Origin: Escherichia coli
GTDB taxonomy: Bacteria > Pseudomonadota > Gammaproteobacteria > Enterobacterales > Enterobacteriaceae
NCBI RefSeq assembly: GCF_003334785.1
Contig: NZ_QOWV01000004.1
Reading direction: 5' to 3' (one strand)
Length of the DNA: 64,000 bases
A program made the translations under genes and the position numbers. This document shows, piece by piece, positions 12,380 to 13,507 of the stretch. The notes beneath the pieces are model-generated. The model did not search any database and had not been told where the DNA came from. It saw nothing but the letters and a program-made list of their open reading frames with translations. Every line of letters begins with the position of its first letter. Position 1 is the first letter of the stretch.

Positions 12380-13507
12380 ATGGAATCGCTCTCAGAAGGA
12401 ACCACAGCAGGCTACCAGCAAATCCACGACGGTATTATTCATCTGGTCGATAGCGCCCGGACGGAAACGGTACGTAGCGTTAACGCGTTAATGACCGCGA
12501 CGTACCAGGAAATTGGCCGACGAATTGTCGAATTTGAACAAGGTGGCGAGGCCAGGGCTGCGTATGGTGCGCAGCTAATCAAGCGACTATCAAAGGATTT
12601 ATGTCTAAGGTATAAGCGTGGGTTCTCTGCAAAAAACTTACGCCAAATGAGGCTTTTTTACCTCTTTTTTCAACATGTTGAAATTCGCCAGACAATGTCT
12701 GGCGAATTAACACCATTGGGAATTCCGCAGACACCGTCTGCAGAATTCCCATCGGCAAAGATTTGGCAGACGCTGTCTGCCAAATCTTTCCCCTTGCCCA
12801 GGTCCACCTACGTCCGTTTACTTTCCGTTAAAAACGCTGACGCCCGCAGCTTTTATGAAAAAGAGACGCTCCGCTGTGGCTGGTCTGTTCGCCAGCTAGA
12901 GCGGCAAATTGCGACCCAGTTTTATGAGCGGACACTACTGTCACATGACAAATCAGCCATGCTGCAACAACACGCTCCTGCCGAGACGCATATTCTTCCG
13001 CAACAGGCGATACGCGATCCCTTTGTGCTCGAATTTCTGGAATTGAAAGATGAATATTCAGAATCCGATTTTGAGGAGGCGCTGATCAACCACCTGATGG
13101 ATTTCATGCTGGAACTTGGGGATGATTTTGCCTTTGTTGGTCGGCAGCGAAGGTTACGCATTGATGACAACTGGTTTCGTGTCGATCTGCTGTTTTTCCA
13201 CCGCCGTTTACGCTGCCTGCTAATCGTCGATCTAAAAGTGGGCAAATTCAGCTATAGCGATGCCGGACAGATGAATATGTATCTCAACTACGCCAAAGAG
13301 CACTGGACGCTACCGGATGAAAATCCGCCCATCGGTCTGGTTCTCTGTGCAGAGAAAGGAGCCGGAGAAGCGCATTATGCTCTGGCAGGTTTGCCTAACA
13401 CCGTTCTGGCAAGCGAATATAAGATGCAACTACCTGATGAGAAACGACTCGCAGATGAACTCGTTCGAACACAGGCGGTGCTAGAGGAAGGCTATAGACG
13501 CCGTTAA
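12380..13507 (+). CDS. yhcG: DUF1016 (YhcG-family) protein with C-terminal PD-(D/E)xK nuclease-like domain, 375 aa
   Basis: ORF 12380..13507; C-terminal region has ...FRVD(269)LLFF...LLIVD(284)LK(286)VGK... consistent with PD-(D/E)xK motifs II/III. Confidence 0.8.
   Translation: MESLSEGTTAGYQQIHDGIIHLVDSARTETVRSVNALMTATYQEIGRRIVEFEQGGEARAAYGAQLIKRLSKDLCLRYKRGFSAKNLRQMRLFYLFFQHVEIRQTMSGELTPLGIPQTPSAEFPSAKIWQTLSAKSFPLPRSTYVRLLSVKNADARSFYEKETLRCGWSVRQLERQIATQFYERTLLSHDKSAMLQQHAPAETHILPQQAIRDPFVLEFLELKDEYSESDFEEALINHLMDFMLELGDDFAFVGRQRRLRIDDNWFRVDLLFFHRRLRCLLIVDLKVGKFSYSDAGQMNMYLNYAKEHWTLPDENPPIGLVLCAEKGAGEAHYALAGLPNTVLASEYKMQLPDEKRLADELVRTQAVLEEGYRRR
12680..12796 (+). repeat. Three tandem in-frame 39-bp units inside yhcG, each with a 27-33 bp palindrome (12682..12708, 12719..12749, 12757..12789)
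   Basis: Exact 39-bp periodicity; units encode EIRQTMSGELTPL / GIPQTPSAEFPSA / KIWQTLSAKSFPL; inverted arms verified base by base. Confidence 0.75.

Follow-up and report, generated by a model that had tools for sequence, protein, structure and literature searches.

The yhcG gene of Escherichia coli encodes a putative nuclease and carries, within its own reading frame, copies of a 25-nt palindromic element (consensus R-ATT-nnnn-AGAC-RSY-GTCT-nnnn-AAT-Y) that is under selection at the nucleotide level, that travels with the gene across phyla and whose two arms are kept able to base-pair. The best explanation, to which we give somewhat less than even confidence, is that this element is a DNA hairpin or cruciform cognate to the NucS-like PD-(D/E)xK nuclease whose gene carries it. 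A publication of 2005 assigned YhcG to this fold, and its family already counts among the candidates for a role in defence; what is new is the in-frame palindrome. The features of the window, the whole 64-kb stretch of E. coli DNA analysed here, are collected in Table 1.

The open reading frame that carries the element is E. coli yhcG, with significant Pfam profile matches, in N-to-C order, to DUF1016_N (E = 1.3e-36) and YhcG_C (E = 1.6e-56), and is thus a member of the YhcG/DUF1016 family (PF17761 plus PF06250). The DUF1016_N match is interrupted, 166 residues covering 136 model positions. In an AlphaFold model built with 97 diverse sequences (14 close homologues alone gave a pLDDT of 46.6), confident helices lie on either side of the linker, and residues ~101–130 have a pLDDT of ~50. 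An earlier note made from the letters of the DNA had described YhcG as a PD-(D/E)xK nuclease-fold protein with apparently intact catalytic residues, and this description holds: the model has the alpha-beta-beta-beta-alpha-beta core, the strand-2 acid, the strand-3 (D/E)xK and the RecB-type QxxxY helix are all present at the residue level, the two strands that had been singled out, around D269 and D284-L-K286, are found as described, and NucS is the nearest solved fold to the model. Sequence and profile searches of PDB chains with YhcG gave no relevant match, NCBIfam contains no model for it, and a search of AFDB50 returned family members only and was uninformative on the N-terminal domain. A search of the accessible literature found no report of YhcG phosphodiesterase biochemistry. 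Deletion of yhcG is synthetically lethal with hypomorphs of dnaB, dnaN and parE (PMC2672614), in keeping with the action of a nuclease on DNA structures associated with replication. The gene is plausibly monocistronic and lies where the same note had placed it, between the fimbrial block and the nan operon: it is 184 nt downstream of the last fimbrial open reading frame (11479–12195) and convergent with nanQ/yhcH (13567–14031, minus strand) on its 3' side. The allele in the window is of the K-12 type and may be impaired, with a W141R replacement at a nearly invariant aromatic position; codon 141 is TGG in other E. coli alleles.

The palindrome had been reported inside and after yhcG, and three in-frame copies are indeed found within the gene, with a fourth past its stop codon. 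The sequence GCAGAC-N3-GTCTGC occurs exactly at 12727, 12766 and 13528, and a variant, CCAGAC-N3-GTCTGG, at 12688; the four stems are perfect or near-perfect and 12 to 18 bp long. The peptides encoded by the three internal units are FQHVEIRQTMSGE, LTPLGIPQTPSAE and FPSAKIWQTLSAK, and the cores of palindromes 2 (12722–12746) and 3 (12761–12785) read ATTCCGCAGAC-ACC-GTCTGCAGAAT and ATTTGGCAGAC-GCT-GTCTGCCAAAT, respectively. The fourth unit, with its palindrome at 13523–13547 (ATTCTGCAGACA-G-TGTCTGCAGAAT), shares 73% identity with internal unit 1 across 40 nt, 5' flank included, and is absent from the corresponding loci of Salmonella, Citrobacter and Pseudocitrobacter. Its hairpin is followed by CTTTAAAAC, with no T run, and a terminator scan of 12100–13700 detected no terminator-like site at 13523–13547; a promoter scan of the same interval gave nothing at the hairpins. 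A further copy, overlooked in the earlier note, lies beyond gltD (ATTCGCCAGAC-TGT-GTCTGGCGAAT), at the left edge of the gltF-fimbrial-yhcG block. The window contains five copies only. Bit scores in Table 1 were obtained with a covariance model, R1. The bare 15-nt pattern occurs six times in the 64 kb, versus 2.67 expected; this difference is not significant and the count was set aside as evidence.

Table 1. Positions of yhcG, its domains and catalytic codons, and the palindromic copies in the window
Feature	Position	Strand	Remarks
Fifth copy, extragenic	6384–6408		13 nt past the gltD stop codon; R1 36.5 bits
yhcG CDS, YhcG/DUF1016 family	12380–13507	+	375 aa, ATG start; from the list of open reading frames
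N-terminal helical domain (DUF1016_N, residues 19–184)	12434–12931	+	Bisected by the repeat-bearing linker
Three tandem 39-nt (13-codon) units in the disordered linker	12668–12785	+	Direct-repeat family D1, spacing 39, 39
Hairpin palindrome 1	12682–12708		AATTCGCCAGACA-A-TGTCTGGCGAATT, 13-bp perfect arms; R1 37.4 bits
Hairpin palindrome 2	12717–12751		15/16 pairs; R1 33.3 bits
Hairpin palindrome 3	12754–12792		17/18 pairs; R1 42 bits
Codon AGG (R141)	12800–12802	+	FPLPWS.Y motif position; W in 84/97 and F in 12/97 homologues
PD-(D/E)xK nuclease domain (YhcG_C, residues 208–360)	13001–13459	+	
Catalytic codons, overall	13112–13282	+	Conservation in 97 homologues
E245	13112–13114	+	Conserved in 94/97
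D269	13184–13186	+	Conserved in 93/97; ends FRVDLLFF
D284	13229–13231	+	D in 85 and E in 8 of 97; within LLIVDLKVGK
K286	13235–13237	+	Conserved in 90/97; within LLIVDLKVGK
Q297	13268–13270	+	Conserved in 91/97
Y301	13280–13282	+	Conserved in 90/97
Fourth unit, extragenic	13508–13547		Directly past the yhcG stop codon; R1 41.9 bits

The element is a property of the family. In a sample of 72 homologous loci from Proteobacteria, Acidobacteria, Planctomycetes, Cyanobacteria, Chloroflexota, Nitrospirae and Verrucomicrobia, at least one unit was found in every gene (72/72), with one to four copies per gene, in frame within the codons of the disordered linker, at a period of 36–48 nt and with gaps of ~11–23 nt that are always in-frame coding sequence. 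Palindromes of at least 9 bp reach a density of 9.97 per kb in the linkers of these loci, versus 0.47 in the rest of the gene and 0.54 in the flanks; a covariance-model search over 595 kb placed the element almost solely in the linker, and it is also present in distant homologues (35–44% identity). In at least 80 of the 93 units, from different phyla and from genomes that differ in base composition, the blocks ATT, AGAC, GTCT and AAT are kept at synonymous sites. Without exception (94 of 94), the units have their centre on codon position 1.

It is scarcely credible that what counts in the repeat is its peptide, such as a short linear motif I-x-Q-T-x-S-x-E/K, with the symmetry of the DNA as a by-product. 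The peptide motif is indeed present in nearly all the homologues examined, but when the genes were recoded synonymously, each with its own codons and with the peptides unchanged, 3.5 ± 1.8 palindromes were obtained, versus 96 observed; moreover, the residues of the linker, which is predicted to be disordered, covary exactly as base pairing dictates (R...GE, C...GK, L...AE, V...AQ, F...GK, Y...DK). Nature here offers a clear example of an amino-acid motif that is imposed, together with its covariation, by base pairing rather than by the function of the protein, and 'I-x-Q-T-x-S-x-E' repeats in proteins of the YhcG family should not be counted as a protein motif in annotation.

Pairing between the arms is maintained while the sequence of the arms changes. 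Positions ±6 to 9 are variable yet complementary in the 94 units; in the 89 units used for covariation, 96% of cells are paired, change on both sides is seen in 164 cells and compensatory change in 10 of 11 pairs, values reached by none of 500 shuffles. The units in the covariation analysis were picked for being palindromic, a bias from which the recoding and density tests are free. The variable stem differs even between units of a single gene (CGCC/GGCG, TTGG/CCAA, TCTG/CAGA), and the persistence of stem symmetry despite these differences is explained by pairing and cannot be explained by one protein reading a sequence. Two-fold symmetry extends to the unpaired positions, with R at −1 and −13 and Y at +1 and +13.

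This pairing could be used in the mRNA, where the hairpins would retard translation, guide processing of the RNA or be bound by the protein in post-transcriptional autoregulation. The element is always in a transcribed, in-frame part of the gene, and the 141-nt linker is very stable relative to shuffled sequences when folded as RNA (z = −10.9, −67.6 kcal/mol); folded as DNA, it has z = −10.8. In selected RNA helices, G.U pairs on the sense strand would be expected to exceed A.C mismatches, whereas 48 G.T versus 73 A.C were counted here (9 versus 12 in a cleaner set), and the lack of a G.U excess favours DNA over mRNA as the site of action. The symmetry of the unpaired positions and the existence of extragenic copies between convergent genes also argue against a role in the mRNA, and no Rfam covariance model matched at E ≤ 1 on either strand of 6300–13700. 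We consider action in the mRNA to be unlikely.

The palindromes might also be selfish or neutral repeats in a permissive loop, kept by slippage and template-switch correction. The linker is disordered and variable in length, units have been both duplicated and lost, and the correction of quasi-palindromes is an established mechanism that can make compensatory changes. Against this, specific bases are kept at synonymous sites in most units, a good copy has been retained in every one of the 72 genes, and the element is nearly confined to one gene family rather than being scattered over genomes, all of which make such a neutral origin a quite improbable explanation. When one version of the palindrome (the gltD-proximal/unit 1 type) was compared by BLAST with 5,426 E. 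coli genomes, it was found at a median of two places per genome, which is read as one to two sites, since a palindromic query matches both strands; the rows inspected all lay in yhcG, in a fragment of yhcG or in unannotated DNA.

Several rearrangements in E. coli end at or close to the element. The yhcG alleles encoding 349, 362 and 375 amino acids differ by whole units, of which they have one, two or three. In the truncation typified by strain H6, which is found in about 720 genomes, the breakpoint coincides exactly with the 3' end of palindrome 3; in genomes lacking yhcG, the left junction of the gltF-fimbrial-yhcG block is unchanged, and one palindrome and then nanQ come after it. A deletion of 68 residues starts at unit 1, the edge of the island coincides with the copy after gltD, and a patch of ~200 nt over the hairpins is 93–97% identical to Pseudocitrobacter in a gene that is otherwise K-12-like. 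Copy-number changes, truncation, two deletions, the island boundary and the conversion tract thus all have ends at, or within about 65 nt of, palindromes, and the element marks a rearrangement hotspot between gltD and the nan operon. A 101-aa 'transposase' open reading frame in the H6-type replacement was considered as a hairpin-specific enzyme of the IS200 type and rejected, as it had no match in NCBIfam or Pfam.

These six kinds of event could mean that the element is a recombination or insertion site, serving homing-like or attC-like exchange of the gene, its halves or cassettes, with the break made by the nuclease or by a host pathway. Copies bracket the gltF-fimbrial-yhcG block and the yhcG-less allele keeps exactly one of them. 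Extragenic copies were also found in two other loci, directly past the stop codon of the upstream gene in L011 and 2.3 kb upstream, before a SIR2-like gene, in L067; in one viral contig, 179-nt direct repeats with two hairpins each flank a toxin-antitoxin cassette. Homologues are 54–66% identical across phyla and recurrently lie between hsdM and hsdS or beside integrases. However, about 75 of 80 loci have no extragenic copy at E ≤ 1, which makes units bounded by hairpins the exception; yhcG occupies the same site in Salmonella, Citrobacter and Pseudocitrobacter with zero outside copies; and slippage alone predicts breakpoints at repeats. A primary role as an exchange site seems rather unlikely.

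The earlier note had suggested, speculatively, that YhcG is a defence or restriction-like nuclease recognising the palindrome. That protein and palindrome belong together is strongly supported by their co-inheritance across phyla; the evidence speaks, however, for an element that the gene itself carries rather than for a restriction site in foreign DNA. Cleavage of the palindrome in invading DNA would be in keeping with the match of YhcG to the PADLOC candidate system PDC-S02 (PDLC04807, E = 2.8e-131, plus more than 20 further PDC-S02 models), a status that makes the family a candidate only, and with the genomic neighbourhoods of homologues, which are found in the order hsdR-hsdM-[homologue]-hsdS in about 10 of 78 loci and also near SIR2 and helicase genes. 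DUF1016 is enriched beside R-M and BREX loci (PMC9881135). Set against this, the sites are in the nuclease's own gene and on the chromosome of the host, E. coli has no partner methyltransferase, and one PDC-S02 representative challenged with T4, T5 and T7 is missing from the four candidates for which protection was reported. In the viral contigs, 17 of 41 hairpin sites are orphans, outside DUF1016 genes, and might be targets in trans; they were rejected as proof of such targets, as generic 12-bp terminator hairpins could match one arm by chance, and single orphan matches come close to the chance number on our own rough estimate, made without a measured control. The tandem viral cases (L110, L117, L120 and L122) alone are treated as real. 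Homologues are rare in cultured phages, and the family does not, therefore, look phage-borne. Restriction of invading DNA at this palindrome is highly doubtful.

We return to the preferred reading, that of a structure cognate to the protein. YhcG would be a NucS-like PD-(D/E)xK endonuclease whose N-terminal domain is helical, and the 25-nt element would be held in frame throughout the family, tolerated by the disordered linker. The encoded protein is the sole constant partner of the element, so YhcG is the most likely to recognise it, probably as a DNA structure; this recognition is suggested by linkage. An extruded palindrome is a four-way junction, and a nuclease of this fold could plausibly act on such a structure. 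The outcome would probably be control by the gene of its own expression, recombination-seeding breaks at the site, or both. The copies past the yhcG stop codon and past gltD would then be local, Escherichia-specific offshoots of an internal unit. Several points stand against this reading: a nuclease cutting its own gene would require a safeguard; an operator ~300 nt within a coding sequence would be unusual for autoregulation; stems of 11–13 bp extrude as cruciforms under strong supercoiling only; palindromes and tandem repeats are inherently prone to recombination, which means that the breakpoints in E. coli could have arisen without YhcG; template-switch correction of quasi-palindromes could yield compensatory changes without selection for pairing; and the K-12-type allele, with R141, may be impaired.

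A bolder extension, which we regard as improbable, is that genes of the YhcG family are self-contained modules of nuclease plus hairpin. YhcG would act, by binding or cutting, on the hairpin or cruciform in the codons of its own linker and on cognate copies nearby, and the resulting breaks would drive gene conversion, the capture or exchange of cassettes, and horizontal spread in defence islands and type I R-M operons. If true, the module would be a mechanism of mobility or diversification without a known transposase or integrase. With 21,241 clusters at 50% identity, YhcG/DUF1016 ranks among the largest nuclease families still uncharacterised, and its members are often found in defence islands, on plasmids and within type I R-M operons; the 25-nt element provides the first specific hypothesis for it that is cheap to test, a candidate substrate for an orphan nuclease.

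Known systems resemble this arrangement in part. NucS/EndoMS (DUF91) are structure-specific endonucleases that differ from YhcG in their N-terminal part, which in YhcG is an unrelated helical domain, DUF1016_N, and not a DNA-binding and dimerisation domain of the NucS type. We know of no mismatch- or flap-cleaving activity of YhcG like that of NucS/EndoMS and, to our knowledge, NucS genes have no cognate hairpin. YhcG also resembles PDC-S02 and the accessory nucleases of type I R-M systems, in that it matches PDC-S02 and homologues lie within hsd operons. PrrC is known as an accessory nuclease inside an R-M operon, and is an anticodon RNase with a fold unlike that of YhcG. In contrast to these, yhcG of E. 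coli stands alone, with gltD (or the fimbrial block) on one side and the nan operon on the other.

The two extragenic copies, at gene ends between operons, resemble intrinsic terminators or integron attC sites, as do the repeats that flank a cassette in L120. The stop-codon copy, unlike an intrinsic terminator, lacks a T run (the gltD copy lay outside that scan); and, unlike attC, the element has no R/L box pattern, no integron integrase nearby and its main copies within a gene. A CRISPR array is not indicated either, with short gaps, in-frame coding repeats and no cas genes among the recurrent neighbours of homologues.

Two further analogies are with kinds of palindromic repeat. REP/RAYT systems similarly pair a single-copy gene with hairpin repeats in which certain bases are conserved and the stem varies in a compensating way, with a few extra copies just beyond the gene. 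RAYTs are relatives of HUH/Y1 transposases, and REPs are intergenic and number hundreds per genome. By contrast, YhcG is a PD-(D/E)xK and not an HUH/Y1 protein, and the copies in yhcG are in frame, with no dispersal elsewhere in the E. coli chromosome at the sensitivity of BLAST with one version of the palindrome over 5,426 genomes. Rickettsia palindromic elements, like the element in yhcG, are palindromic DNA tolerated in frame where the protein is disordered or at its surface, with the peptide as a passenger. They are about 100–150 bp long, decaying, and found in many unrelated genes of one genus, whereas the element of yhcG is 25 nt long, belongs to one gene family across phyla and is selected at synonymous sites.

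A nucleotide-level element that depends on base pairing accompanies the NucS-like nuclease gene yhcG and lies within a tolerant part of its protein. The earlier note had drawn attention to a GCAGAC-N-GTCTGC palindrome in and after this gene; it was right, yet understated the case, as yhcG carries three units with longer palindromes, and there are additional copies outside (see the table). On its own, the 15-nt pattern is statistically unremarkable (6 occurrences found in 64 kb, 2.67 expected), unlike the full units: folding of the 141-nt linker gives z = -10.8 as DNA and z = -10.9 as RNA, with none of 200 shuffles as good. 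The gltF-fimbrial (yhcADEF)-yhcG block (6384-13547) has a palindrome copy at each end.

Tandem units, palindromes and related hairpins; unprefixed positions are those of the window, and L numbers denote compared loci or contigs
Feature	Position	Description
Three tandem units, 39 nt each	12668-12785	Within yhcG; one long palindrome per unit
Palindrome 1	12682-12708	Perfect arms, 13 bp
Palindrome 2	12717-12751	15/16 pairs
Palindrome 3	12754-12792	17/18 pairs
Fourth unit	13508-13547 (palindrome 13523-13547)	Immediately 3' of yhcG stop codon
Fifth copy	6384-6408	13 nt past gltD stop codon; overlooked by the earlier note
Methylomonas copy	L011 2856-2884	Directly past stop codon of gene upstream of DUF1016 gene
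Ignavibacteriae MAG copy	L067 703-731	2.3 kb upstream of DUF1016 gene, before SIR2-like anti-phage-type gene
Weak match (one)	L040	
Two abutting hairpins	L117 9938-9985	AATTCATCAGACACTGTCTGATGAATT and AATTGGGCAGACGTTGTCTGCCCAATT; central AATT common to both
Direct repeats, 179 nt, 94% identical	L120 4686-4864 and 6008-6186	Two hairpins in each

The gene itself (12380-13507, + strand) encodes 375 residues and bears out the nuclease motifs named in the earlier note (FRVDLLFF ending at D269; LLIVDLKVGK containing D284-L-K286) and its placement, 184 nt past the final fimbrial ORF and in convergent orientation to nanQ/yhcH. Pfam assigns residues 19-184 to DUF1016_N and residues 208-360 to YhcG_C ('YhcG PDDEXK nuclease domain'). 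Structure prediction, proposed in that note as a check, gave an AlphaFold model (97-sequence alignment, mean pLDDT 85.3, low confidence only in the linker, residues ~101-130) with a canonical PD-(D/E)xK core, predicted to comprise a helix (228-246), three strands (250-261, 264-274 and 279-289), a second helix (292-309) and a further strand (318-325). The fold assignment is already known and nothing new: Kosinski, Feder and Bujnicki placed YhcG in the superfamily in 2005 and saw its kinship to DUF91/NucS (PMC1189080). Within its known family YhcG is ordinary, with every membership feature that could be tested. The window allele has R141 (AGG, 12800-12802), a position occupied in 97 homologues by W (84) or F (12) within a FPLPWS.Y motif and by W (TGG) in other E. 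coli alleles; judging from the sequence, YhcG of the K-12 type with R141 may be functionally weakened despite its intact catalytic residues. A stationary-phase antisense/divergent RNA, G0-10703, is reported to overlap the 5' region of yhcG by 128 bp (window ~12250-12380) (PMC7967276).

YhcG homologues form 21,241 clusters in a library of 1.84 billion proteins, and all those examined have short repeats, variable in number, between the 'MR.FY' helix and the 'LSWSHY' motif (I.QT.S.E/K, ISETLSRK, ILSTVSRE, ISESLIRK and IHNSVVEI, for example). Eighty loci from many phyla, encoding proteins 54-66% identical to YhcG, were sampled, and the 72 with a clean gene model were used. Counting palindromes of 9 bp or more, the linker codons contain 9.97 per kb, compared with 0.47 for the remainder of the gene and 0.54 for the flanks (363 kb); good units number one to three in each of the 72 genes and are always spaced by multiples of three. 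When the linkers were recoded synonymously, keeping the peptide and drawing codons from the same gene, 3.5 +/- 1.8 palindromes remained (maximum 9 in 100 trials), versus 96 observed. The symmetry is, therefore, made by codon choice rather than by the peptide, and the same result contradicts the reading of the repeat as a peptide motif, which is hardly tenable despite the repeats seen in the proteins. Aligned on their centres, which fall on codon position 1 in 94 of 94 cases, the units give the consensus R-ATT-nnnn-AGAC-RSY-GTCT-nnnn-AAT-Y, the outer and inner blocks of which are kept in at least 80 of 93 units, with positions +/-6 to 9 varying only jointly. Pairing holds in 96.0% of cells in 89 units (76.6% when shuffled), both sides have changed in 164 cells (39.9 when shuffled), with compensatory change in 10 of the 11 pairs; such values arose in 0 of 500 shuffles, and shifted registers drop to 20-49% pairing. 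These covariation counts lean towards structure because the units were chosen for being palindromic, a bias from which the density and recoding tests are free. The amino acids of the linker covary (R..GE, C..GK, L..AE, V..AQ, F..GK, Y..DK, S-E..S-R-K) exactly as predicted from reverse-complementary codons. More distant members (35-44% identity) also have the element, in degenerate form in one A+T-rich genome. The palindrome is almost certainly under family-wide selection at the DNA level. A literature search covering few subscription journals found no paper tying DUF1016 or YhcG to palindromes or hairpins.

The variable stem differs among units of one and the same gene (CGCC/GGCG, CCGC/GCAG, TTGG/CCAA, TCTG/CAGA). 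Such self-complementarity within each unit cannot be explained by a dimeric protein reading bases; it can be explained by intrastrand pairing, or by a mutational process needing such pairing. The latter would suit selfish or neutral palindromic DNA maintained by slippage and template switching, an origin that is distinctly unlikely. The ATT and AGAC blocks are kept at synonymous positions across phyla and differing genome base compositions, which argues that something also reads the sequence. A hairpin acting in the mRNA is quite unlikely: the linker folds as RNA, but G.U is not favoured over A.C on the sense strand (9 vs 12 in the clean set; 48 vs 73 in 164 in-frame units, degenerate ones included) and the unpaired positions are two-fold symmetric (R at -1 and -13, Y at +1 and +13), which fits a DNA element equivalent on both strands, unlike the usual selected mRNA helices.

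A covariance model built from the units was run over 595 kb (the window plus 85 loci) and located the element nearly exclusively within the linkers of YhcG-family genes, the exceptions being the two extragenic E. coli copies and the matches at L011, L067 and L040. Salmonella, Citrobacter and Pseudocitrobacter have yhcG at the same place past gltD and internal copies only, so the outside copies are new in Escherichia. They have flanks like those of internal units, and the copy past the yhcG stop codon shares 73% identity with unit 1 across 40 nt and would encode FQRFRILQTVSAE in the same frame; the outside copies have the look of linker offshoots of ~45 nt. A BLAST search of 5,426 E. coli genomes with one palindrome version gave a median of two places per genome, read as one or two sites because a palindromic query matches each site on both strands; the rows inspected lay in yhcG, a yhcG fragment or unannotated DNA. 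In IMG/VR, ATTNNNCAGACNNNGTCTGNNNAAT matched 41 sites on 38 contigs, 24 within DUF1016 genes and 17 elsewhere. By a rough estimate, chance matches of generic hairpins to one arm could account for the single orphan sites, an explanation that cannot cover the tandem cases. The L117 pair precedes the start of a gene for a large serine recombinase (CcrB/XisF-like) by ~15 nt, with a MobA-like gene adjoining, and no DUF1016 homologue is present within that 12.5-kb stretch. The L120 repeats enclose a two-gene SocA-type toxin-antitoxin cassette (SocA/Panacea-type antitoxin assigned via a homologue on contig L122) between a 544-aa unannotated ORF, with no NCBIfam match, and an ORF read from the sequence as tyrosine-integrase-like; this double-hairpin element recurs on L122, where a DUF1016 gene lies 1.3 kb away.

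At least 80% of the region is present in 3,346 of 5,426 complete E. coli genomes, and the rearrangements listed here have an end point at, or no more than ~65 nt from, the hairpins. E. coli alleles with one, two and three units encode 349, 362 and 375 aa; the array is longer in Pseudocitrobacter, in which the model detects three units in a 382-aa protein. In ~720 genomes, yhcG is truncated exactly at the final base of palindrome 3, where 476 bp of unrelated DNA takes over. This replacement (L002 2030-2505 in strain H6, NZ_CP010170.1) eliminates both the downstream palindrome and the C-terminal two thirds of the gene; the segment carries an unrelated 10-bp inverted repeat (GGCACAGAGC...GCTCTGTGCC) and a 101-aa ORF annotated 'transposase', with no match among Pfam or NCBIfam families. 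Genomes without yhcG have gltD, then the 13-nt junction of the window, one palindrome and nanQ, consistent with a deletion between the two bracketing copies; ~950 records have a perfect copy of this palindrome version, as a match count rather than by individual inspection. The left edge of the gltF-fimbrial block is the copy past gltD. A 68-residue deletion (protein P0036) starts at unit 1, with TTCGCCAG microhomology at both ends. One 370-aa allele (L132) matches K-12 at 97-100% identity along most of its length, with a patch of ~200 nt across the hairpins (window ~12620-12800) that is 67% identical to K-12 and 93-97% to Pseudocitrobacter, which indicates an inter-genus conversion tract spanning the array and confined to this segment. 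These rearrangements demonstrate a propensity of the site to recombine in vivo, without establishing YhcG as the cause. That the element itself serves as a recombination or cassette site is rather unlikely. Separately, the single-unit allele of O111:H8 (L001 ~1950-1975) is annotated as frameshifted, the missing base lying ~10 nt past the hairpin, and other strains have IS1 insertions within yhcG.

The gene order hsdR-hsdM-[homologue]-hsdS is found in about 10 of 78 loci and an adjoining integrase in 7; other neighbours are helicase/PrimPol, ABC-type ATPase or SIR2-like genes. DUF1016 is 17-fold enriched beside programmed-inversion targets, chiefly R-M and BREX loci (PMC9881135), and is known from integrative conjugative elements and Rickettsia RAGE elements (PMC4316617). 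Homologues occur on 518 of 72,556 plasmids versus 16 of 50,697 phage records. Hu et al. (2009) tied YhcG to HsdMRS, McrBC, IntF, IntS and PinE in a network, and reported its deletion to be synthetic-lethal with dnaB, dnaN and parE hypomorphs (PMC2672614). The family is the PADLOC candidate defence system PDC-S02, one representative of which was challenged with T4, T5 and T7 and fell outside the set of protective candidates; restriction by YhcG of foreign DNA bearing the site is very unlikely. Because the gene moves between phyla and the element is nearly absent elsewhere, the protein that the gene encodes is the most plausible reader of the conserved bases. We tentatively suggest, from these sequence comparisons, that the element may be a cognate DNA site recognised by its own gene product: YhcG would bind it as a DNA hairpin or an extruded cruciform (a four-way junction), and the outcome could be roadblock-type self-repression, occasional breaks seeding the observed recombination, or both.

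The element is not a CRISPR array, an attC site or a canonical terminator, and no Rfam family matches it. It resembles REP/RAYT pairs in being a hairpin repeat tied to one nuclease-type gene, but YhcG belongs to another enzyme class and its element is in-frame and intragenic rather than dispersed. Rickettsia palindromic elements are likewise in-frame palindromes, from which the yhcG element differs in size, limitation to one family, phylogenetic breadth and selection.
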